From IMG/VR virus record IMGVR_UViG_2563366976_000013: a stretch of 43,386 nucleotides of DNA; one strand, given 5' to 3'. The notes under the pieces were generated by a model that was given only the letters and a program-made list of their open reading frames with translations, made no database searches and was not told where the DNA came from. Shown here piece after piece: positions 3,367 through 43,386 of the stretch. Source of the stretch: a virus (taxonomy: Duplodnaviria > Heunggongvirae > Uroviricota > Caudoviricetes). The first letter of the stretch is position 1; each line of letters begins with the position of its first letter. The translations under genes and the position numbers were made by a program.

Positions 3367-3394
3367 ACCCGCAATATTTTGCGGGCTTTTTTTT
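3367..3394 (+). terminator. Rho-independent terminator oriented for plus-strand (antisense to late operon)
   Basis: Stem CCCGCAA/TTGCGGG followed by T8 on plus strand; minus-strand version lacks U-run. Confidence 0.45.
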
Positions 3395-6300
3395 AACGTT
3401 CTTCCAGAGACTGAACCCGCTCTTTTATCTTATCCATTTCTCTGCGCTGCCATGCTGCCTCGATATAGAATAAGAGATCAGGTCTGACCCCCCATCTAGA
3501 TCCTGCTGGCGTTATTTCAACGCGCTCAATGATGTCTTCTATTACCATCACTGGATTATCATCCTCATCAACAATGATGCTCCCGTCATTATCAGTCAGC
3601 GGCATTTCCCTTTGGCCAGTAATGACGTCATCATATACTGCGGGATAATCGTCATAGCAAAGAAAGGCATAGCGGCATGTTGTGCTTTCTTCTTCCATGA
3701 GTCCGTGAGAAATAAGAACATCACGAAGTTGCTGCGCGATTACACCATGATGTATCCTCGCCCCTTCTTCCCCCTTTATAGCGACAGCGTTCAGCCATTT
3801 ATAAGCGATATACCTGACGTCACCCCAGGCATCCAGCAATGCTTCGTCAGGAGAGACCGGCTCTGTCTTTAATGTTCCGTCACTGGTAACCACAGGATTG
3901 GAGCCAAGATAAACTATCGAGAACCTGTTTCCCGGACCACCAAGAGCATTTACATTATCAAGATAAGGTTTAACATCTCCGTTCTCAAAAAGATGTTCGA
4001 GTGCGTTATATACCGCGCGACGTGGAGTACTGCTTCCGGAACCATGCAACGTTATCATTGCACCATCTGCTGAAGACGTTGTTTCACCGCCGCTAACGAT
4101 TAATCTCTGAGCGGTAACATCATCAGACGGTACTTTCTTCGCAATAATGGCGTAATTACCCTCAAGTTTGACTTCCGCGCGAACTTGTCCTGATGTACCT
4201 GCATGGACAGTCAGTGACTGGACGGCAACATCATCTGTGAAATCAACGGGTACAGGAACCGTCCTCACGCCTGACGTCGACATAAAAGTAGGAAGCGTTC
4301 TGTTAGGAGTGGCTCCGTAGACAAAATCCCTTGAAACAAATTCTTCCTGTTTAATTTTCACCCTGAAACAATACAAATCAGCCGGGTGACCATCGTGAAC
4401 ATAAGGATATTTTCTGTTGTTATCCCCTATGCTCCATGGGTTTAGAAAGTCTTCCCCACCGAAAATGTAGTACAGCCAGTTGTCTTTGATACAAACTGAA
4501 CCAACACCAACCGCAGAGTTAACTATTCCGCCCTGATAAATCTGATCAGTAACATTAACCCACTCTACATTATCCAGACTCCACTCATTGACGTTAACTC
4601 TGGTCATAAATGTTCTTGGATAATTTCCTGCATAACGGTTATCAGGTTCTCCTCCTTCCCACTCACCAAATGCGCGCTCACTGCCAAAAATAATCAGCTC
4701 ATCGCCAACTTTGGCAAAAGGAAGGTTTGAGTGATGAACATTATTTGGGAAGCGAAGAGAATTCCATGATGTACCTAAATCAGAGCTTCTGTGCAATGAA
4801 CTACCGGGTTGAGTACTTAATGTCCCCCTGGTCGTCAGATACAGAATGCCATCATAATATTTTACACATGGCTCAGATGCATTCGCCTCATATTCTACAG
4901 GTATGCGTCTGCGAACAAAGCTACCAGGAGAACCGAAAGCATCAGAGAAATAGAGTATCCCAAGCTCGCGTGGACCAATATCACCATTATGGTAGCCAAC
5001 AGCAAAACTGTTATCGCTAATCGTCGCAAAACTGTGAATCTCAGTAACAGGAGTGCTTCCGTCAACAAAAGAAGGAATAGTTCCAAGACTGGTTTTTCTC
5101 CATGGTGACGAGTGAAATGATGTGCCAAAACTCCAGTATCTACCCTCGTTATTCTGATCCACATCCTGGGTATTTTGCGTCGTAACTGTAAAGGTATTTT
5201 TATCAATAACAGTAGTCACCGTCATATTCCCGGTAACACCTGTAACACCAGAGTTTGAGAAGTTGACAAAATCACCAGCAAATAATCCGTGATCAGTAAT
5301 GCGAATATAAGCGACTTGCTGATTTGCTGCTTTCGTTATACCACCATAAACGCGAAGGCTGCGACTCATTGGGCGATCCCACAACTCTGCAACCTGCAGT
5401 TTATTTCCTCTCACGGTCCGCGTCTCAATTACAGCAAAAAGGCGATTTCTGACAACCCCCATACTCATGCAGTGATAGTTAACTGTGGGATAGTTTTTAT
5501 GTAAATCTGTAAGCCATTCCGGCGTTGTCCAGGTCTTCCCGTCATCTCCTGAGCGAACCCATGCAACATGGAGGTTATTTACACCATGGCGGTCTCCAGC
5601 CATAAAAGGCGCATAGATGACATTGTCATATACAAACGTTTTATCCTGCGTCCAGGCGTTGTACCACGGTGTATCTGTAATTTTAAATAACTCTCCCTGG
5701 ATAAAATCTTCAGAAGCATAAAAAAGAGGCTGGCCCGGTATTCTCTCAAATAAAAAACGAGCATTTTTAAATCGACTGACATCCGGAAGAGTTGATACTT
5801 TAAAAGTAAGCCCTAATCCGTCAATTTTATAACCTGGAGATGAGGCTTCAAGGCACGCGCTTATTGCAGTGGAATCGTCATTTATACCATCACCAACAGC
5901 TCCAAAATCTTTGGGGCTAATAGCATCACGCATTTTATCCTGGAACGTTCGGTACACAGCCCCAGAACCATACTGAATAAACCAACCAAAACCACCAACA
6001 ACTCCGGAGATTGCAGCATCGACATAATTACGCATTGAGCGATTATTTACAGCGTCCTGCTCAAATGATGGATCTGCAAGGTTAGAAATTTTGTTTTGCT
6101 TTGCATCGTAATATTTTGCAAGCAAAGATGGTTTCATCAATGCACGTCTGAACCACCCAAAACATTGCTGGATCAGCATCGTCAGGTAGTCAAAGGCATC
6201 TTCATGCACTTCGGGGAAAAATTTTCCCTGATTGCGAAGGTCTGTGTCCTGCACTACATCAAGCACACGATCTATCGTAATTCGCCATCCAGTAGCAAGC

Positions 6301-6512
6301 GGAGACGGAAGAACCACAGAACCGCCACTATAAGTGCCCGCCCCAGTTACCGTATAACCGGTATCCAGAACCAATTCTGTTACGTTTCCGTTCAGGTCAG
6401 ACACCTGAACAACCAGGTCTGATTTTCTGAAAATTCGAAAAGTATACGGAAACGATGTCGTAACGCCGTTACCGGTGTATTCGTTGTGGTCAACTTCGGT
6501 TGAGACCGTCAT
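3393..6512 (-). CDS. Tailspike: endo-N-acetylneuraminidase (endosialidase, K1 polysialic acid capsule depolymerase) with T7 gp17-like N-terminal adaptor and C-terminal intramolecular chaperone domain
   Basis: Long colinear matches to K1-phage endosialidase as recalled from memory (GQPLFYASEDFIQGELFKITDTPWYNAW, TVNYHCMSMGV, C-terminal ARIHHGVIAQQLRDV...CRYAFLCYDDYP); N-terminal region resembles T7 tail-fibre N-domain; RBS GGAG. Confidence 0.85.
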   Translation of the reverse strand: MTVSTEVDHNEYTGNGVTTSFPYTFRIFRKSDLVVQVSDLNGNVTELVLDTGYTVTGAGTYSGGSVVLPSPLATGWRITIDRVLDVVQDTDLRNQGKFFPEVHEDAFDYLTMLIQQCFGWFRRALMKPSLLAKYYDAKQNKISNLADPSFEQDAVNNRSMRNYVDAAISGVVGGFGWFIQYGSGAVYRTFQDKMRDAISPKDFGAVGDGINDDSTAISACLEASSPGYKIDGLGLTFKVSTLPDVSRFKNARFLFERIPGQPLFYASEDFIQGELFKITDTPWYNAWTQDKTFVYDNVIYAPFMAGDRHGVNNLHVAWVRSGDDGKTWTTPEWLTDLHKNYPTVNYHCMSMGVVRNRLFAVIETRTVRGNKLQVAELWDRPMSRSLRVYGGITKAANQQVAYIRITDHGLFAGDFVNFSNSGVTGVTGNMTVTTVIDKNTFTVTTQNTQDVDQNNEGRYWSFGTSFHSSPWRKTSLGTIPSFVDGSTPVTEIHSFATISDNSFAVGYHNGDIGPRELGILYFSDAFGSPGSFVRRRIPVEYEANASEPCVKYYDGILYLTTRGTLSTQPGSSLHRSSDLGTSWNSLRFPNNVHHSNLPFAKVGDELIIFGSERAFGEWEGGEPDNRYAGNYPRTFMTRVNVNEWSLDNVEWVNVTDQIYQGGIVNSAVGVGSVCIKDNWLYYIFGGEDFLNPWSIGDNNRKYPYVHDGHPADLYCFRVKIKQEEFVSRDFVYGATPNRTLPTFMSTSGVRTVPVPVDFTDDVAVQSLTVHAGTSGQVRAEVKLEGNYAIIAKKVPSDDVTAQRLIVSGGETTSSADGAMITLHGSGSSTPRRAVYNALEHLFENGDVKPYLDNVNALGGPGNRFSIVYLGSNPVVTSDGTLKTEPVSPDEALLDAWGDVRYIAYKWLNAVAIKGEEGARIHHGVIAQQLRDVLISHGLMEEESTTCRYAFLCYDDYPAVYDDVITGQREMPLTDNDGSIIVDEDDNPVMVIEDIIERVEITPAGSRWGVRPDLLFYIEAAWQRREMDKIKERVQSLEER

Positions 6513-6616
6513 GTTAAATCTCCAGATAGTCGCAGCACCCGTTGCGCCGCATATCTGGTTATTCTATTACCTGGAAAACCACATATGGATAGAAAGGCTG
6601 TAAATACGAATAGATA

Positions 6617-6631
6617 TTACCTTTCAGGTAA
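6617..6631. promoter_or_regulatory. Operator-type palindrome TTACCtttcaGGTAA
   Basis: Perfect 5-5-5 inverted repeat; same motif family as cI/cro operators. Confidence 0.5.
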
Positions 6632-6668
6632 TTTGCAAAACGTGCTGGATAGCAAACAAATTATTTGC

Positions 6669-6688
6669 TACTGTATAAATATACAGTT
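6669..6688 (+). promoter_or_regulatory. LexA (SOS) box TACTGTATAAATATACAGTT
   Basis: 18/20 match to consensus TACTGTATATATATACAGTA, CTGT-N8-ACAG core intact; 20 nt upstream of ATG at 6708. Confidence 0.7.
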
Positions 6689-6707
6689 ATTGCATGGAGA
6701 AGATAAG

Positions 6708-6965
6708 ATGCAGCAGTATCACTATCCACTGGAAGACGGATTTACCGAAAGGATTCACACGCCGGGAGGCGTCAGGTCACTGGTGGAGGGATCGCACTTG
6801 ATGAAATTACTCCGGGATCTCGATAAGGATGGATTTAATGTCGATGGCCCACTTGCCGAACTGACTGCACTGATTAACTACGTCACCAGCTCACAGATGT
6901 CTATGCAGGATCTGCAAACACATCTCGACTATTGTGCCGAACAATTACGAAAACAAACCAGATAA
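6708..6965 (+). CDS. Small SOS-controlled antirepressor-like protein (standalone version of the Ant C-terminal domain)
   Basis: 85 aa from ATG 6708 with RBS GGAGAAG; aligns with C-terminal about 80 aa of the three Ant paralogs (PL..G..IH.P.GV..L.E.S.LM.LL..L..DG..V.G..AELT....Y......DLQTH..Y). Confidence 0.6.
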   Translation: MQQYHYPLEDGFTERIHTPGGVRSLVEGSHLMKLLRDLDKDGFNVDGPLAELTALINYVTSSQMSMQDLQTHLDYCAEQLRKQTR

Positions 6966-7011: not shown

Positions 7012-7038
7012 ATTTACATCGCACTCCTCTTGTGCCAT

Positions 7039-7090
7039 AGTAATCAGGCACTGGCAAAATCCAGTGCCGGGATTGGTCTCCCGGATTACT
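7039..7090 (+). ncRNA. Conserved structured leader RNA element upstream of ant1 (three-way junction fold), followed by leader terminator
   Basis: AGTAATC...GATTACT outer stem enclosing hairpins GGCACTGG-caaaat-CCAGTGCC and CCGGGA-ttggtc-TCCCGG; near-identical copy in ant2 leader (11160-11213, minus strand). Confidence 0.45.
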
Positions 7091-7104
7091 ACAGAGGCAC
7101 ATAT

Positions 7105-7124
7105 GCCGCATAAGCGGTTTTTTT
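7105..7124 (+). terminator. Leader terminator/attenuator upstream of ant1
   Basis: Short GC stem GCCGC-ataa-GCGG followed by T7 run; analogous stem plus T7 in ant2 leader. Confidence 0.45.
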
Positions 7125-7278
7125 ATGTGTAAAGCGCACCTATTCTATGGTGGGCTGTGTGGGGGCACCGAAAGGTGCGCCGGGTTCCTTTGTAGCCGGT
7201 AAGACCAACTCTGCACAGTTCACCACCATCTGATTGGTCTCAGCGGTGGTGATTAACCTAACTACAAAGGTGATCGCC

Positions 7279-7971
7279 ATGAATACCAAACCTTCCATCT
7301 TTTCCTTTGAGTCATCCTGCCAGATCCGTATGTTCATGATTGACGGAGAACCTTGGTTTGTCACCAAAGATGTGTGCAATGCTTTGAATATTGATGTTAC
7401 ACAAGCGAGAAAACTTGATAAAAAAGGCTGGAACAAAAAGGGGCTGTATTCAATACAGACCCCTGGTGGAATACAAGAACTATCCATCGTTTCAGAATCA
7501 GGTCTCTACATCCTTATTCTGCGTTGCAAAGAGGCAATGACTGAGGGAACGAGAGCATTCAGATTTCTTGAATGGGTTACAGGCGAAGTACTTCCTCAGA
7601 TCCGCCGCACCGGAAGCTACATTAAAAACTCGCTCCCGCAGGAAGAACGCATAAAGATGGTTGCCGACCAGGTAGCCAACGCCACGGCGTCAGCAGTAAT
7701 GCAGGCGATGAAGATAGAGAACAAAACCTACAGCGCCCCACTGAAGCCCGGCTACCGCAGCCTGATTCATTCGCCGTCTGGTGTTCTCGGCCTGACGGAG
7801 AACTCACTGCTGATGAATCTGCTGAACCAGTTACAGGACGACGGGCACGACGTATCGGGCGCGGCGGCGGAGCTGACCACCATGTTCTGCTACATCGTCG
7901 GTGTGAGCAAATGCCTGCGTGATATCCAGACCCACGCGGAATACATCAACGACAAGGCAGGGTTCTTCTGA
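7279..7971 (+). CDS. Antirepressor paralog 1: Bro-N/KilA-N-type N-terminal domain plus shared Ant C-terminal domain
   Basis: IDGEPWFVTKDVCNAL motif (Bro-N-like); C-terminal 100 aa near-identical to the other two paralogs; start at ATG 7279 with RBS AAAGGTGA (ORF track begins at upstream TTG 7234). Confidence 0.75.
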   Translation: MNTKPSIFSFESSCQIRMFMIDGEPWFVTKDVCNALNIDVTQARKLDKKGWNKKGLYSIQTPGGIQELSIVSESGLYILILRCKEAMTEGTRAFRFLEWVTGEVLPQIRRTGSYIKNSLPQEERIKMVADQVANATASAVMQAMKIENKTYSAPLKPGYRSLIHSPSGVLGLTENSLLMNLLNQLQDDGHDVSGAAAELTTMFCYIVGVSKCLRDIQTHAEYINDKAGFF

Positions 7972-8014
7972 CGGGCGGCGGCACAGGGATGTGCCTTTAA
8001 ATAATTCTGTACGA

Positions 8015-8057
8015 TTGCAGACCGGGGGTGAATAGCGTACTATTACCTTAAAGGTAA
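8015..8057 (+). promoter_or_regulatory. Promoter/operator module (J element) upstream of YafO-like cassette 1
   Basis: -35 TTGCAG, 17-bp spacer, -10 TACTAT ending at first T of palindrome TTACCttaaaGGTAA (8043-8057). Confidence 0.5.
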
Positions 8058-8099
8058 ACCTGTTTTTATTTTATACCTGTAACTTACCGGAGATTAAAG

Positions 8100-8426
8100 A
8101 TGACAAAACTTGGATTCGTGATGAGAGGTCCGGTAAGAAGCGGAACTCATGCAAAGCGTAGCAAGAGTCGTATTTTTACTGGTAAGGTTGTAGCACGTAA
8201 ATCAGCTATTGGCTCGTTCAATAGTGAAAATGCGGCATTGCGCCATATTTTTATCAGCACAAAGCCAAGAGCATCCGCTGATGTGCATACAATGTCTATT
8301 CCTATCACAAAGAATATAAAGCGGATAAAAAAGCTCTCATCTGCAGAATCAAAAGAGATATCTTTCCGCCAGCTTAACTCATTAGAAACGCATATGAAGG
8401 AAGAGGAATTCGATGTTTTTGAGTGA
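8100..8426 (+). CDS. Putative antitoxin/partner protein of YafO-like toxin 1 (basic, no recognised fold)
   Basis: 108 aa, RBS GGAG, overlaps toxin start by 14 nt (translational coupling); weak similarity to partner of cassette 2 (ARKSAIGSFNSE vs ARRSFNGSVE). Confidence 0.35.
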   Translation: MTKLGFVMRGPVRSGTHAKRSKSRIFTGKVVARKSAIGSFNSENAALRHIFISTKPRASADVHTMSIPITKNIKRIKKLSSAESKEISFRQLNSLETHMKEEEFDVFE

Positions 8427-8925
8427 GTATAGCGGGAAGGTTATACCTACTGGTGAGTTTAAAACTGATGACTTTCTGATTTCGCTAAAAGATGCTTTTA
8501 AACAACACTGGCGTCATGGTCATCATCCTGATCTGGGAAAAGATACTCTTTTTGAAAGACCAGAGGAAGTATTAGGCTTCCATCTCAGAAAGGTTCATGT
8601 CAATATTGGTGAATATGCATCATATTCATACTCATGTACTGAACAGTGTTGGGATGAGTGGTCATATGGATTGATTGATGAACAAGGAAATTACAGGCCA
8701 AAACCAACCAGTAACGCATATCTCATATATGCAGTCAATGAAATAAGAGATGCAGCCTTACTAGCTTATTGGGACCCGCCCGCACACACCAAAGCTAACG
8801 CAAAAGTTTGGATGGATTCCGTATTGAATTTCACAAAATTATTTCATGAACGAACGAATACAGCTCCACTTAGTAGAAATGTTTATCCGTGGGATTATTC
8901 GTACAAATCCAAAAAGCCTGCATAG
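8413..8925 (+). CDS. YafO-like toxin domain protein, copy 1 (type II toxin, ribosome-dependent mRNA interferase family, by motif)
   Basis: Motifs W.HGHHPDLGKD..FERP...L.FHLRKVHV and AYLIYAV...DAALLAYWDPPAH resemble YafO from memory; paralog of 9440..9985; RBS AAGAGGAA. Confidence 0.5.
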   Translation: MFLSEYSGKVIPTGEFKTDDFLISLKDAFKQHWRHGHHPDLGKDTLFERPEEVLGFHLRKVHVNIGEYASYSYSCTEQCWDEWSYGLIDEQGNYRPKPTSNAYLIYAVNEIRDAALLAYWDPPAHTKANAKVWMDSVLNFTKLFHERTNTAPLSRNVYPWDYSYKSKKPA

Positions 8926-8935
8926 TAGTTTTTTA

Positions 8936-9155
8936 TGGACGAAACAAAAGTCAGTGCTACACTCATTGACGCCACATTGAGGTGGCTTATAGATGGAAAT
9001 TTCACAATGAAAAAAGCATTTGCTGCACTGTTCGTTTTGTTGTCTCTGGTAGCGTCAACTCAGGCCTTTGCCGGTCGTTGTCAGCACGACAGCGACACTG
9101 CTGCTGACGGCTCCCGCTGCGGTGGGCGTTCTGCGGATTCCCGCCCGGGCGGCGG
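8936..9155 (+). repeat. Direct repeat copy A (220 bp, one mismatch to copy B at 10007..10226)
   Basis: Identical sequence block containing small signal-peptide ORF; seen directly. Confidence 0.9.
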
Positions 9156-9174
9156 CACAGGGATGTGCCTTTAA
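9007..9174 (+). CDS. Small secreted Cys-containing peptide (55 aa) or gene fragment, copy 1
   Basis: Signal peptide MKKAFAALFVLLSLVASTQAFA then about 30-aa mature part with Cys residues; ends inside J junction sequence; weak RBS. Confidence 0.3.
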   Translation: MKKAFAALFVLLSLVASTQAFAGRCQHDSDTAADGSRCGGRSADSRPGGGTGMCL

Positions 9175-9205
9175 ATAATTCTGTACAGATTGCAGGTGAA
9201 TAGCG

Positions 9206-9225
9206 TACTATTACCTCAAGGGTAA
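9206..9225 (+). promoter_or_regulatory. -10 TACTAT plus operator palindrome TTACCtcaagGGTAA upstream of cassette 2
   Basis: Same J module as at 8038-8057. Confidence 0.5.
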
Positions 9226-9285
9226 ACGGATTGGTTTCATTTTTATTAATCCGTGTAATGAACTTATGAGATATGAGGTAATGTC

Positions 9286-9465
9286 ATGCGAAACGAAAAA
9301 TTGCAGATGCGTAGAGCGCAAGCTGCCGCAAGACGTTCTTTCAATGGAAGCGTAGAGTACGTAAAAGTTACTATGACAAAAGATCACGCAAGTCGCGTAT
9401 CCCGCGCTTTCTTTGATTCTCGTAACAATAAGGAAAATTATGAGTTCGTCTGCGTCGCAGAATGA
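9286..9465 (+). CDS. Putative antitoxin/partner of YafO-like toxin 2 (59 aa, below ORF-track cutoff)
   Basis: ATG 9286 with RBS GAGGT 8 nt upstream; overlaps toxin 2 start by 26 nt; manual translation MRNEKLQMRRAQAAARRSFNGSVEYVKV... Confidence 0.3.
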   Translation: MRNEKLQMRRAQAAARRSFNGSVEYVKVTMTKDHASRVSRAFFDSRNNKENYEFVCVAE

Positions 9466-9985
9466 TAAAAATCAAATTGTCAGATATAAGGGTCGAGTAT
9501 TGCATACGCAAAATTTCTCGGCCCTTTGTGCATCTGATCTTGAGCTGAAGAAAGTATCTGATGCCTTTACCCAGTATTGGAAAACGGGATACCATCCATC
9601 TCTTGGTAAAGATGCTGCATTTGCTCGTCCGACAGAAATGCTTAAACTAAATGTCAGGCATACTCATGTCGATAACCAAGACTATATTCCAGAAGATAGT
9701 GATAAAAAACACACTGGTAAAAAATCATCTTGGGATGCATGGAAAAATATAGCGTCTGTGCAAGTAAAATGCATACCAACAAGTGATTGCTTTTTAGTTT
9801 ATTCGGTAAATCACAATCGTGATGCGCTGGTTATGTTTTTTGTTGACGCAGATGCCCACAACATAACTGAGCAAGAAGAGTTTAAAGAGGCAGCAATCAC
9901 TATCAGTTATCAATTCTTTGAGAAAACAAAAACAGAACCAATGCCTTTAGAAGAAGATCTTTTTTCTGATAAATGGAAGGAATAG
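9440..9985 (+). CDS. YafO-like toxin domain protein, copy 2
   Basis: Motifs W.TGYHPSLGKD..FARP...L.LNVRHTHV and CFLVYSV...DALVMFFVDADAH; start at ATG 9440 with RBS AAGGA; followed by terminator. Confidence 0.5.
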   Translation: MSSSASQNDKNQIVRYKGRVLHTQNFSALCASDLELKKVSDAFTQYWKTGYHPSLGKDAAFARPTEMLKLNVRHTHVDNQDYIPEDSDKKHTGKKSSWDAWKNIASVQVKCIPTSDCFLVYSVNHNRDALVMFFVDADAHNITEQEEFKEAAITISYQFFEKTKTEPMPLEEDLFSDKWKE

Positions 9986-10005
9986 CCCGCAGCGCGGGCT
10001 TTTTT
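9984..10005 (+). terminator. Rho-independent terminator after toxin 2
   Basis: AGCCCGC-agc-GCGGGCT stem followed by T5. Confidence 0.6.
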
Positions 10006-10006
10006 G

Positions 10007-10226
10007 TGGACGAAACAAAAGTCAGTGCTACACTCATTGACGCCACATTGAGGTGGCTTATAGATGGAAATTTCACAATGAAAAAAGCATTTGCTGCACT
10101 GTTCGTTTTGTTGTCTCTGGTAGCGTCAACTCAGGCCTTTGCCGGTCGTTGTCAGCACGACAGCGACACTGCTGCTGACGGCTCACGCTGCGGTGGGCGT
10201 TCTGCGGATTCCCGCCCGGGCGGCGG
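10007..10226 (+). repeat. Direct repeat copy B
   Basis: 220 bp, one mismatch vs 8936..9155. Confidence 0.9.
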
Positions 10227-10239
10227 TGGCATTCGTTAA
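10078..10239 (+). CDS. Small secreted Cys-containing peptide, copy 2 (variant C-terminus)
   Basis: Same signal peptide and mature region as copy 1; differs only in last 5 residues. Confidence 0.3.
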   Translation: MKKAFAALFVLLSLVASTQAFAGRCQHDSDTAADGSRCGGRSADSRPGGGGIR

Positions 10240-10312
10240 AAACAAGGCCGCGAAAGCGGCCTGTGACATGTCACGATAGTTTCGTTTTGCACATCCCTGT
10301 GCCGCCGTTCTG

Positions 10313-10969
10313 TCAGAAGAACCCTGCTTTGTCGTTGATGTATTCCGCGTGCGTCTGGATATCACGCAGGCATTTGCTCACACCGACGATGTAGCAGAAC
10401 ATGGTGGTCAGCTCCGCCGCCGCGCCCGATACATCGTGCCCGTCTTCCTGCAACTGGTTCAGCAAATTCATCAGCAGTGAGTTCTCCGTCAGGCCGAGAA
10501 CACCAGACGGCGAATGAATCAGGCTACGGTAGCCGGGCTTCAGTGGGGCGCTGTATTCTTTTTTGTCTTCCAGCTTGATCGCCTCCATAATGGCGGGCAT
10601 GAAGCCTGACAAGACCTTCTCCACTTTTGTTTCTTGTTGTCTTAAACGTTTCTCGCATTCAATGAAGTAGCGTCGCACCTGGCGACCTTTTTCGTTACGC
10701 TCGACCATCGCCAGCTCTTTGGCTGTATCAAGGGTGAGGTGGTACTCTTTGCGGTTGTGGCCGCCTCTACCAGATGTTTGCTTTCCCAAATTGGAAAGCA
10801 AAATATAGTCTTGATTTTCAATGAATTCGTATTCTGATATGCGATTTGTAATCCATGCTGCAAACACCTTTTTAACACCTAAAAAAGCGTGCAGATCGCG
10901 GGCATTACAAAGTAGGGCTGTTTCGTTAGATATAGTGCCGTTGAATACGGGGATGAGTTGAGCGTTCAT
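10313..10969 (-). CDS. Antirepressor paralog 2: AntA-type N-terminal domain plus shared Ant C-terminal domain
   Basis: N-terminus [23 protein letters not shown], middle [20 protein letters not shown]; C-terminus near-identical to ant1 and ant3; RBS GGAGACG. Confidence 0.75.
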
Positions 10970-11125
10970 GATGGCGTCTCCACTTAGCGAATTACATCAC
11001 CACCGCTGAGACCAATCAGATGGTGGTGAACTGAACGGAGTTGGTCTTACCGGCCTAAGTGGTACCGGCGTCCTTTCGGACCCCCATTCAGCCCACCATA
11101 ATTCTGGCATGACTGTGCTATACGC

Positions 11126-11285
11126 ATAAAAAAACCACGTCTGGCGTGGTATGCGCCACTTAGTAATCCGGGAGACCAATCCCGGCACTGGATTTTGCCA
11201 GTGCCCGATTACTATGGCACAAGAGGAGTGCGATGTAAATTTACCGAAAAGGTAATGATAAACGCTAAGAAATATTAAAATCAAC
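11126..11285 (-). promoter_or_regulatory. ant2 promoter, operator (11241-11255), structured leader (11160-11213) and leader terminator (11126-11150)
   Basis: Mirror image of ant1 control region with near-identical structured element; palindrome TTACCgaaaaGGTAA. Confidence 0.5.
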
Positions 11286-11402: not shown

Positions 11403-11750
11403 GTGCCATTCCACGGCGCAGAGCTTTATGTTGTCAATCACAACGGCGAACCGTATACCCCAATGAAACCTATCGTTGAGGGAATGGGGCTAGACTGGAA
11501 ATCTCAACATAAGAAGATTTCTCAACGCTTCTCGAAGGGTATGGTGGAAATCACCATACCTTCTGCCGGTGGGGTGCAAGCCATGATTTGTATGGCTTTA
11601 CGAAAATTGGCAGCTTGGTTGAACAGCATCAGCCCTAACAAAGTCCGTCCTGAAATCCGCGAAAGTATTGAAACATCAACCGTGTCGATATCGATACGGT
11701 TGATTATGACGGTAACTTATTGCCGTGTGTCCTATTTCTCCCACCACTAA
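11403..11750 (+). pseudogene. Probable remnant of an antirepressor N-terminal domain gene (truncated)
   Basis: GTG start; first 90 aa look like a conserved phage antirepressor N-domain (FHGAELYVVNHNGEPYTPMKPIVEGMGLDW), then low-complexity tail; near-palindrome at 11677-11702 at the break. Confidence 0.35.
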
Positions 11751-41129: not shown

Positions 41130-41453
41130 AATCACGCCTGACGAATCGCGATTATCTCGCTATTGGTATTGCAGAGATTGCTGGACTCAGTGGCGCATGA
41201 TTTGACAATGCCGCCAGAGCTATCGCATACTGACCGCACTAGAACTTCAAAGCGGTCACCCGCACCCGATAGCTTTGCGGCTTTTTTATGCCTGCAATTT
41301 GGCATAGTCACATCCGTACAAAGGTCGGGTGGAGAGGCGTAATACAATACCCAAAAGGGGAATATGCCCGGAGCGTCTTTGAAGGCTCTAGTTGACACCC
41401 GATCACCAGCTACTAACTGGTGATTGCTAACTAAAACTTCAAAGGAGGTCATC

Positions 41454-42104
41454 ATGACCAGTCAACTCATCCCCGTATTCAACGGCACTATATCCAACGA
41501 AACCGCTCTTCTCGTTAATGCCCGTGATTTACACTCTTTCCTCGATGTAGGTAAGCGATTTGCTTCGTGGATTGTCGAACGAATTGCTGAATATGGTTTC
41601 GTTGAAAATCAAGACTTTATGATTATTTCCCAAGTTCGGGAAAAAATAGGCAGAGGCCGTCCTGCAAAAGACTACCACCTCACCCTCGATACAGCCAAAG
41701 AGCTGGCGATGGTCGAGCGTAACGAAAAAGGTCGTCAGGTACGATGCTACTTCATTGAATGCGAGAAACGTTTAAGACAACAAGAAACAAAAGTGGAGAA
41801 GGTCTTGTCAGGCTTCATGCCCGCCATTATGGAGGCGATCAAGCTGGAAGACAAAAAAGAATACAGTGCCCCGCTGAAGCCCGGCTACCGCAGCCTGATT
41901 CATTCTCCGTCTGGTGTTCTCGGCCTGACGGAGAACTCACTGCTGATGAATCTGCTGAACAAGTTACAGGAAGACGGGCACGACGTATCGGGCGCGGCGG
42001 CGGAACTGACCACCATGTTCTGCTACATCGTCGGTGTGAGTAAATGCCTGCGTGATATCCAGACGCACGCGGAGTACATCAACGACAAGGCAGGGTTCTT
42101 CTGA
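41454..42104 (+). CDS. Antirepressor paralog 3: AntA-type N-terminal domain plus shared Ant C-terminal domain
   Basis: High identity to paralog 2 across most of length; RBS AAGGAGG; hairpin CACCAGctactaaCTGGTG just upstream. Confidence 0.7.
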   Translation: MTSQLIPVFNGTISNETALLVNARDLHSFLDVGKRFASWIVERIAEYGFVENQDFMIISQVREKIGRGRPAKDYHLTLDTAKELAMVERNEKGRQVRCYFIECEKRLRQQETKVEKVLSGFMPAIMEAIKLEDKKEYSAPLKPGYRSLIHSPSGVLGLTENSLLMNLLNKLQEDGHDVSGAAAELTTMFCYIVGVSKCLRDIQTHAEYINDKAGFF

Positions 42105-42135
42105 CGGCGGCGGCACAGGGATGTGCCGGGCAAAA

Positions 42136-43386
42136 TTATTCCCCCGCCATCCACTTCTCAAACTTCGACGGGGAGAACGGAATCAGATCCGTATGCTCCC
42201 CGTTAATCCAGGAATCAATCATATCGGCCCACTGCTGCAACATGTAGGCGCGCTGTCTGGCGTATTCCGCTTTGTTATATACGGCGCGCACACCTTTCTG
42301 CTCATGTGCCAGAGCCTTTTCAATCCAGTCTGAAGGATAACCAGCCTCATGCAACAACGTACTGGCTGTACGGCGCATATCGTGTACGGTGAAGCCCTGA
42401 ATATGCTCACCATCTTCATTTATTATTTTCACCGTTCTGTCGATCAGAGAGTTCAGCGCGGCATTAGATAATGGCTTCCGGAAATTGTAACGACCAGGAA
42501 CCAGATATTCACTTCCACCAGCGCACATCTGCAACCCAACCAATATATCCTGTGCCTGTTTAGGCAGGTAAATAACGTGCGCCCGGCTTCCCTTCATGCG
42601 GTCTGAAGGAATTGTCCATGTCCATTTTTTAAAATCTATTTCATCCCACGTTGCATTGGTGAATTCGCCTTTACGAACCATAGTGATAAGCACCAGCTTT
42701 AAAGCCATTTTCATAGTGCCCATAGCACCAATGGCATCCAGCGTGCGGAAGAACAGGCCAATTTCTTCTGGTGTCAGTGTTCGCTCTCGTGGTTTAAATA
42801 TGGCGATAGACGAAGGTTTAATGTCAGCCGCAGGATTAAACAAACCATGACCACGGTCATTGGCGTGACGGTATACGCTGCTGATGATCTCCCTGGCCTG
42901 TACTGCTGTTGCCCGACCACCGCGTTCGACAATCCGGTCACACAAATCACGAACCATCGATGTGGTAATTTCAGCCATCATTTTGTTGCCAAGAACCGGA
43001 AGTATGTCACGGTCGATCACCGCCTGCTTCATTGCGCGGGTACTGTCAGCCAGGATAACGTGTTTCATATAACTGTCGGTATGTACCGCAAACGTCTCGG
43101 CACCACGAATCTTTTTGATACCGTCACGTTTAGCCGCAGCCGGTGACTGGCCTGCTTTAAGCAGCTTCTTTGCAGCAATCAGTTCTTCCCGCGCTTCTGC
43201 CAGGCTGATACCGTCACGCCCATACTGCCCGATTACCAGTGTTTCGCGGCGACCGTTGATACGGTAGTCATAGCGAAACGAGACCGTGCCTGACGTAAGC
43301 ACAGCTACATACAGCCCGTCACGATCGGAGACCTTGTACAGTTTGTCCTGCGGCTTGAGGTTTTTTAATTTTGTATCGGTAAGCAC
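42136..43386 (-). CDS. int: Tyrosine integrase (phage integrase family), N-terminus truncated by window end
   Basis: N-terminal LTDTKLKNLKP...DGLYVAV arm-binding type region and C-terminal catalytic region with HDMRRT and terminal-Y context; ORF runs off window. Confidence 0.85.
   Translation of the reverse strand: MLTDTKLKNLKPQDKLYKVSDRDGLYVAVLTSGTVSFRYDYRINGRRETLVIGQYGRDGISLAEAREELIAAKKLLKAGQSPAAAKRDGIKKIRGAETFAVHTDSYMKHVILADSTRAMKQAVIDRDILPVLGNKMMAEITTSMVRDLCDRIVERGGRATAVQAREIISSVYRHANDRGHGLFNPAADIKPSSIAIFKPRERTLTPEEIGLFFRTLDAIGAMGTMKMALKLVLITMVRKGEFTNATWDEIDFKKWTWTIPSDRMKGSRAHVIYLPKQAQDILVGLQMCAGGSEYLVPGRYNFRKPLSNAALNSLIDRTVKIINEDGEHIQGFTVHDMRRTASTLLHEAGYPSDWIEKALAHEQKGVRAVYNKAEYARQRAYMLQQWADMIDSWINGEHTDLIPFSPSKFEKWMAGE

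Follow-up and report, generated by a model that had tools for sequence, protein, structure and literature searches.

The window analysed here, meaning the whole 43,386-nucleotide (nt) stretch of IMG/VR record IMGVR_UViG_2563366976_000013, is a complete Uetakevirus-like prophage of the phiV10 / TL-2011b type, the closest phage records being TL-2011b, phiv142-3, ZX5 and phiV10. Within it a small open reading frame (ORF), here called the mini-gene, occurs twice, each time in one copy of a direct repeat. A repeat search of the window placed this 227-nt repeat at 8929–9155 (copy 1, R') and 10000–10226 (copy 2, R), both on the plus strand, with two mismatches, A/G at 8935 and C/A at 9114, the latter a synonymous change in a Ser codon. 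R' consists of a 78-nt upstream and leader region and the mini-ORF as far as a crossover core at 9146–9155; in other E. coli genomes matches to R' break exactly at 9155. The original prediction that each repeat copy encodes a product of 53 to 55 amino acids (aa) was confirmed by translation. Copy 1 of the mini-ORF (9007–9174, plus strand, ATG start, 55 aa; MKKAFAALFVLLSLVASTQAFAGRCQHDSDTAADGSRCGGRSADSRPGGGTGMCL) has an intact conserved core and a replaced tail (…PGGG-TGMCL), whereas copy 2 (10078–10239, plus strand, ATG start, 53 aa, ending in PGGGGIR) is the canonical full-length form. The span 9007–10239 is exactly that from the first ATG through the second stop. The first 50 residues are the same in both products (MKKAFAALFVLLSLVASTQAFA followed by GRCQHDSDTAADGSRCGGRSADSRPGGG) and include the conserved core CQHDSDTAADGSRCGGRSADSRPGG; the ends differ, TGMCL in copy 1 versus GIR in copy 2.

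The two copies lie between two convergent anti-repressor genes in the order upstream ant, junction J, cassette A, mini-gene copy 1, a second J, cassette B, mini-gene copy 2, hairpin terminator and right-hand ant. The upstream Bro-N/Ant gene (7279–7971, plus strand; PHROG 130/450 anti-repressor Ant, E 2e-50) has its stop codon at 7969–7971, directly before J, and its last 257 nt are repeated in inverted orientation at 10312–10568 and directly at 41849–42107. The first J (7972–8012, plus strand) comprises the 10-nt core CGGGCGGCGG (7972–7981), the hairpin GGCACA-GGGA-TGTGCC (7980–7995) and an AT-rich tail; it is the terminator-like end of the ant 3' untranslated region (UTR) and forms the constant left flank of the slot. 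The second J (9146–9186, plus strand) is an exact 41-nt repeat of the first, and its core (9146–9155) is the crossover point between R' and J. Cassette A (8013–8928, plus strand; PHROG 5933 and 1651) contains a 108-aa ORF (8100–8426) overlapping a 170-aa YafO-like ORF (8413–8925), and cassette B (9187–9999, plus strand; PHROG 6685 and 1651) contains a 59-aa ORF (9286–9465) and a 181-aa YafO-like ORF (9440–9985). With the Pfam model YafO_toxin (PF13957; cut-off 25 bits), cassette A scored 20.1 bits, below the cut-off, and cassette B 25.9 bits. Cassette B ends in its own terminator-like site (9984–10000) with a T-run. The right border of the slot is formed by the AntA gene on the minus strand (10313–10969; Pfam AntA, E 4e-26; PHROG 377).

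Related loci from E. coli genomes and IMG/VR contigs were surveyed for their cassettes (L001–L004, L062–L149). In 83 of 84 such loci J was followed by one cassette and R, and in each of the 84 the mini-gene was present once, with a GGIR end. At least nine unrelated alleles can be distinguished among the cassettes; they include two YafO-like pairs, a DUF4760 protein, several unknowns and two membrane proteins, one with DUF2335 and one of 288 aa. This shows a slot for interchangeable accessory cassettes between the two anti-repressor genes, with J as the constant left and R as the constant right flank.

The mini-ORF is a genuine protein-coding gene of a widespread family that is catalogued (PHROG 14503; 'transmembrane anchored protein' at NCBI) but uncharacterised. 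Copy 2 matched PHROG 14503, which carries the label 'membrane associated protein' and the category moron, over residues 1–53 of 53 (E 2.3e-40), and copy 1, which differs from the family only by its recombinant tail, over residues 1–50 of 53 (E 7e-38). Copy 2 is identical to TL-2011b gp43 (YP_007001994.1, 'putative transmembrane anchored protein'), which has the same length and the same position between a cassette and the convergent ant gene, and to RefSeq WP_000708858.1. Its protein occurs on at least 1000 contigs, and the 261-nt 3' part of the repeat is present in 499 of 5426 complete E. coli genomes.

Homologues extend far beyond this prophage lineage. A single-sequence protein search returned 57 clusters, with homologues of 50–55 aa in Shigella, Klebsiella, Citrobacter, Cronobacter, Franconibacter, Salmonella, Pectobacterium and Dickeya; a profile search returned 737 clusters at 90% identity (nearly all 47–55 aa among the 120 best listed), and an exhaustive hidden Markov model search 379 clusters at 50% identity. 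Scanning of genomes found homologues in 57 species genomes, among them Enterobacterales, Rhizobiales, cyanobacteria, Vibrio and Bacteriovorax, as well as Mesorhizobium, Rhizobium, Agrobacterium, Bradyrhizobium, Devosia, Methylobacterium, Rhodoferax and a myxobacterial metagenome-assembled genome. The core C-x4-D-x-A-x-DGSRCG-x-R-x4-RPGG is near-invariant and the signal peptide drifts freely. Both wide alignments show C25, A32, D34, G35, S36, C38, G39, R41, G48 and G49 without variation; R46 does not vary in wide alignment A6 and hardly varies in A4. RPGG is followed by one to four variable residues and then the stop codon in nearly all members. The mini-protein had no match in Pfam, NCBIfam, PADLOC or PDB sequences, and clustering of the ORFs within 3 kb of family members at 56 genome loci revealed no neighbour family common beyond close relatives.

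For a test of coding status the 25 codons of the core were taken from loci of Enterobacterales type (14) and from more distant ones (42). For the 14 Enterobacterales-type loci, the proportion of synonymous differences (pS) in the annotated frame was 0.71, near saturation, versus 0.11 for non-synonymous differences (pN). Entropy by codon position was 7.7 / 5.5 / 31.4, and the other two frames gave pN/pS of 2.8 and 3.2. This shows strong purifying selection on the protein in the annotated frame, and because synonymous saturation with a kept protein is found only in that frame, conservation acts on the protein and not on a DNA or RNA element. One could suppose that the ORF is incidental and that the repeat owes its conservation to a non-coding role, as recombination site, small RNA or terminator block, given that a leader hairpin and a terminator are RNA-level features and that recombination involves the ORF's 3' end. 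The coding test rules this out and leaves it next to no probability in our judgement, since amino acids are kept across genera whose DNA is barely alignable and the pattern is reversed in the other frames. Rfam, too, matched nothing inside the repeat, its hits (isrK and C4) lying in the flanks only.

The same data speak to the two readings offered in the original prediction, a secreted peptide moron or the 5' stump of a gene truncated when cassettes recombined. For the stump, it can be said that copy 1 does end in junction sequence and that some distant relatives measure 100–800 aa. Fifty-three residues are, however, the standard full length in this family. Whether members are short or long, their conserved core stops at RPGG, and selection acts on the reading frame. 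A strong hairpin directly past the stop is found in 13 of 14 homologues. The longer distant proteins hold the whole motif as a complete module followed by unrelated linkers or domains, and homologues did not prove to be a longer protein whose remainder is missing here, the short members stopping one to four residues past RPGG. Given the family length of about 50 aa and the hairpin past the stop, a non-functional stump is ruled out, and we would give it hardly any credence. The moron reading is supported, within what sequence analysis can tell: a conserved family of 47–55 aa, purifying selection, an own terminator with a conserved leader, and absence from phiV10 at the same position all agree with it. 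An upstream start giving a product of 77–88 aa was also considered and rejected; upstream, the in-frame sequence differs from genus to genus, and the ATG at 8935 of copy 1 is GTG in copy 2.

The duplication can be read from the junctions. The 10-mer CGGGCGGCGG is common to the 3' end of the mini-gene and the start of J, that is, the ant 3' UTR. It occurs three times in the window (7972, 9146 and 10217) versus 0.03 expected, and the 24-mer that includes the J hairpin, GGCACAGGGATGTGCC, likewise occurs three times versus 0 expected. In copy 2, the tail and terminator usual for the family come after the core (10217–10226). Copy 1 matches the mini-gene through CGGGCGGCGG and then continues with the sequence normally found past the ant stop codon, its stop lying within the AT-rich tail past the J hairpin. 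This junction alignment, in which all four left/right combinations were found around the core, shows the window to be the product of an unequal crossover at the 10-nt match, whereby J-A-R and J-B-R gave J-A-R'-J-B-R. Single-cassette A with a normal 53-aa gene is found in E. coli BAA-2469 and 23CRST038, and single-cassette B in phage TL-2011b. The claim that the last codons of both copies run into the shared junction sequence thus stood for copy 1, the last five codons of which lie in 9146–9186, and failed for copy 2, which has the 10-nt core only. That cassettes recombined at the junction agrees with the crossover alignment, and the damage is small, no more than four codons at the end of copy 1, all within the variable tail, having been exchanged (GGIR to TGMCL).

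The exchange alters residues 51–55 of copy 1, past the conserved RPGG; at this place the tails of homologues read Q, K, N, D, GGIR, GGYR, EGAR, SGAL or RGGIC. Because copy 1 retains the box and leader in front of the ORF, the ORF's core and, behind it, the hairpin of J, and because the change falls in the variable tail, it is probably still functional. The exact 55-aa chimera is present on at least 38 contigs (e.g. EFK2133868.1, 'hypothetical protein'), and in eight of eight contexts inspected it was the internal gene of an array of two cassettes. The array partners are A+B, DUF2335+B, DUF2335+A, and DUF2335 with another cassette, and the R'/J joint is the same in all. An assembly artefact was rejected, as independent assemblies contain the same A+B array. 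The gene is therefore a known object, already in public databases even in its chimeric 55-aa form.

Among 5426 complete E. coli genomes the R'/J joint was found in one (MS 196-1) and a deletion joint in three, as against about 460 with a single cassette. The deletion joint of phiV10 reads ant stop, CGGGCGG, AGGCGGCATTCGTTAA, the last corresponding to the last six mini-gene codons (with synonymous differences), and then the mini-gene terminator, with no cassette; judged by this joint, phiV10 is the reciprocal deletion product. The annotated phiV10p22 (29-aa hypothetical protein, phiV10 1783–1872) overlaps the equivalent of the 3' end of the ant frame and reaches as far as the deletion joint; a broken ant gene has probably been mis-annotated here. 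In the window, the flank of the second J (9186–9227) shows 86% identity with that of the first (8018–8059) and is without 7 nt (CAGATTGCAG joined to GTGAATAGC, versus CAGACCGGGGGTGAATAGC), from which it follows that the J copies come from different alleles; the 7 nt are kept in some arrays of other strains (L145, L147–L149). The coding single-nucleotide polymorphism of the repeat was tried as a marker of the cassette-A or cassette-B parent and gave no assignment, the site being polymorphic within both groups and the search pattern missing many loci.

Could the 10-nt core instead be an att-like site, with the J hairpin, a cassette and most of the mini-gene forming a mobile cassette that is inserted and excised site-specifically? 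The window would then be a two-cassette array and phiV10 an empty site. All four junction types of an attL / attR / empty-site / circle-or-tandem set do occur around the same core, the same R'/J joint links at least four different cassette pairs, and the slot holds at least nine alleles. The core also recurs at 7972, 9146 and 10217 as direct repeats at cassette ends, with one partial core in phiV10, which is equally expected from a microhomology crossover. No recombinase is linked to the slot, however, which is flanked by ant and structural genes only, the sole integrase lying 32 kb off at the prophage end. Arrays and empty sites are as rare as given above in comparison with single-cassette loci; the match in phiV10 is only 7 nt with synonymous differences beyond, and looks like an independent illegitimate event. 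Cassette swaps are explained by homologous recombination in the flanks of about 90 nt (J) and 310 nt (R), and GGCGG, a part of the core, belongs natively to the 3' UTR of each of the three ant paralogues. We regard a site-specific system as very unlikely. The rarity of both products, the lack of a slot-linked recombinase and the shorter match in phiV10 favour occasional illegitimate crossover followed by homologous reassortment, and the recombination history is mechanistically ordinary.

The repeat looks like a small self-contained gene, with a -10-like box, a leader hairpin, a weak Shine-Dalgarno sequence, the 53-codon ORF and a hairpin terminator. The box, TACACT (copy 1, 8958–8963; copy 2, 10029–10034; plus strand), belongs to a TAnnnT box kept in 14 Enterobacterales homologues, with the T, A and final T invariant or nearly so; a possible -35 element, TGGACG, lies at 8936–8941 with a spacer of 16. 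These boxes make up a putative promoter of the mini-gene's own, in support of which cassette B and the DUF2335 cassette each end in a terminator abutting the module. The leader hairpin GCCAC-ATTGAG-GTGGC (copy 1, 8971–8986; copy 2, 10042–10057; plus strand) is found at the same place in 12–13 of 14 homologues, starting 5–8 nt past the box. Its sequence varies (GCCAC/GTGGC, GCCGC/GCGGC, GCCGTC/GATGGC, TTGCC/GGCAA), and RNAalifold gave five pairs, four of them with compensatory double changes. The terminator hairpin AGGCCGC-GAAA-GCGGCCT (10245–10262) lies directly past the stop, a terminator-like site there being called on the minus strand; it ends the module and, in view of the minus-strand T-run, also serves the convergent ant gene.

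A five-codon upstream ORF (ATG GAA ATT TCA CAA TGA; 8993–9010, copy 2 10064–10081) lies 6 nt past a strong GAGGTGG, and its stop overlaps the mini-gene start codon (ATGA). The motif CATGG(A/T)AAG is kept in other genera, and its frame relative to the main ATG varies: it gives an overlapping upstream ORF in Kluyvera and one Enterobacter and an in-frame extension in Enterobacter ENT03 and Franconibacter, and is absent in Buttiauxella.

The elements of a canonical Sec signal peptide, claimed for both products, are all present when read by rule. The N-terminus has Lys2-Lys3, a hydrophobic stretch at residues 4–16 (11-residue Kyte-Doolittle means up to 2.9) and Ala at -3/-1 (AFA/G). The predicted signal peptide occupies codons 1–22 in copy 1 (9007–9072) and 10078–10143 in copy 2, where the predicted mature 31-aa peptide (10144–10236) would contain Cys25 and Cys38. 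With cleavage after AFA, a peptide of about 31 aa would be set free in the periplasm, and its two invariant cysteines may form one disulphide around the invariant D-x-A-x-DGSRCG loop. A lipoprotein was rejected: there is no lipobox L-[AS]-[GA]-C, and the sequence AFAGRC puts Cys25 three residues past the predicted cut.

Across the family, A-x-A-type cleavage sites are kept, with lipoboxes instead in some cyanobacterial and Beijerinckiaceae members. In longer relatives the module stands after a signal peptide and before a transmembrane helix, next to or after SH3b, or in repeats with Pro/Thr linkers; no Pfam model covered the module in ten of these. The conserved cleavage residues, the lipobox swaps and the placement in longer relatives argue for an extracytoplasmic location, and the comparison points to an extracytoplasmic binding module. 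In a group of distant relatives (P0074, P0094, P0097, P0119 and P0131) a signal peptide, the DGSRCG module, the string 'RNPDTDW', one transmembrane helix and a cytoplasmic domain of about 150 aa without Pfam match follow one another; these proteins look like single-pass receptors with the module outside.

The peptide might not be released at all, the N-terminus being an uncleaved signal-anchor and the product a tiny inner-membrane protein with a periplasmic tail of about 30 aa. The names given by NCBI and phage annotators ('transmembrane anchored protein') and the PHROG 14503 label would fit this, as would an AF2 model with one N-terminal helix over residues 2–16 or 2–22. Yet members from different phyla keep small residues at -3/-1 (AFA/G, AYA/G, ALA/G, ANA/A) as the rest of the segment drifts, which is the pattern of cleaved signal peptides; some members have a lipobox (LTAC, VTSC), another cleaved export signal; and the hydrophobic core of about 13–15 residues is short for a stable transmembrane helix. 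We consider retention by a signal-anchor unlikely, and a released peptide remains our preferred reading.

As to function, the mini-gene may be expressed from its own promoter in the lysogen and the peptide may act in the envelope as a small disulphide-stapled binding module. A role of this periplasmic peptide as a moron of the lysogenic-conversion or superinfection-exclusion type is put forward tentatively, as less probable than otherwise. A phage moron in the sense of Hendrix and Juhala is one ORF that brings along a promoter and a terminator of its own and sits as an insert between phage genes that are conserved. The mini-gene module shows most of the traits of a moron. It consists of one small ORF, preceded by a conserved box and leader and followed by its own terminator; it is transcribed against the direction of the structural genes, and it is found in some Uetakevirus-like genomes and absent from phiV10, where only the last six codons and the terminator are left. 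It differs in that its promoter is inferred only, in that it is the constant partner of a variable slot and not a sporadic insert, and in that members of the family are common outside phages. T4 Spackle, T5 Llp and phi80/N15 Cor are examples of small superinfection-exclusion factors that are periplasmic or lipoproteins. By analogy the mini-protein resembles them as a small phage-encoded, presumably exported product that may act in the lysogen envelope; it has no sequence relationship to them, and its family is not phage-restricted. One family member gave E 0.065 with T4_Spackle, which is noise.

The stretch D-R-x-x-D-G-x-x-C of the module resembles the Excalibur calcium-binding motif (PF05901), and both are short Cys-bracketed extracytoplasmic modules. 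None of 35 family members matched PF05901, even at E up to 10. One long relative (P0177) combines a weak Excalibur-like region (E 0.13) with a variant of the DGSRCG module. An Excalibur domain was rejected for the mini-gene, as the Pfam model is unmatched and, where the DxDxDG loop has its middle Asp, the family has an invariant Ala. The module may instead be an unrecognised ancient extracytoplasmic mini-domain with one disulphide and about 25 residues, recruited by Uetakevirus-like prophages as a lysogen-expressed envelope factor; it would occur as a stand-alone secreted peptide and within larger envelope proteins in several phyla, with no counterpart in Pfam, NCBIfam or PDB. This is a speculative idea, somewhat more doubtful than the proposed role in the lysogen. 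If true, it could mean, for example, binding of an ion or an envelope ligand that alters phage susceptibility.

Taken as a whole, we hold with good confidence that the locus carries a catalogued small exported-peptide gene, duplicated by a cassette-stacking crossover. Several points weigh against this reading or parts of it. A consensus promoter scan found no sigma-70 site in R, and the proposed boxes fit at only 8 of 12 positions. Export and cleavage of the peptide are predicted by sequence rules. The third cysteine in the new tail of copy 1 could hinder formation of the disulphide. In Alphaproteobacteria most members of the family are chromosomal and stand-alone, so that the family's general role does not have to involve phages. 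The identity of the R'/J joint across different cassette pairs fits one event with later homologous reassortment, though repeated events may also have taken place. A literature search found no paper combining 'transmembrane anchored protein' with 'phage' and none with the string DGSRCG; the paper on the Uetakevirus ZX5 treats the anti-repressor only (PMC9782041).

In its wider setting the slot lies between the tailspike gene (3393–6512, minus strand) and genes for internal virion proteins (from 12066, minus strand), and the window's only integrase is encoded at 42136–43386 on the minus strand. Two inverted regulatory units resembling P1 immI (7035–7230, plus strand; 11019–11217, minus strand) each precede an anti-repressor gene and face each other across the slot. 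Both contain Rfam matches above the gathering score, isrK at 74.7 and 67.7 bits and C4 antisense RNA at 78.6 and 61.2 bits, with c4-a1b1 target matches just under the gathering score. A third full anti-repressor paralogue (41424–42104, plus strand) adjoins the integrase, has 439 nt (96%) in common with the minus-strand ant and is followed by the same GGCACAGGGATGTGCC hairpin (42104–42127). With a stand-alone ant C-terminal domain (6585–6965, plus strand; PHROG 450) and a short N-terminal Ant-like ORF (11403–11750, plus strand; PHROG 524), the prophage contains up to five ant-derived pieces.

Variable accessory or defence hotspots are familiar from temperate phages of the P2/P4 type. The slot resembles these in its constant flanks and its many unrelated, stackable small cassettes (toxin-like pairs, membrane proteins); the phage lineage and the flanks differ, and no PADLOC model matched the cassette proteins tested. 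Uetakevirus-like prophages may have in this slot a so far uncharted hotspot for accessory or defence genes.

The locus and phiV10 together preserve both reciprocal products of an unequal crossover at a match of 7–10 nt, the tandem array and the deletion, and offer a clean natural example of how accessory slots of temperate phages gain and lose cassettes without a dedicated recombinase. The mini-gene family for its part represents a large set of exported peptides of about 50 aa for which there is no domain model or structure. As about 9% of complete E. coli genomes carry it through one prophage lineage, a simple genetic test of its function is feasible.

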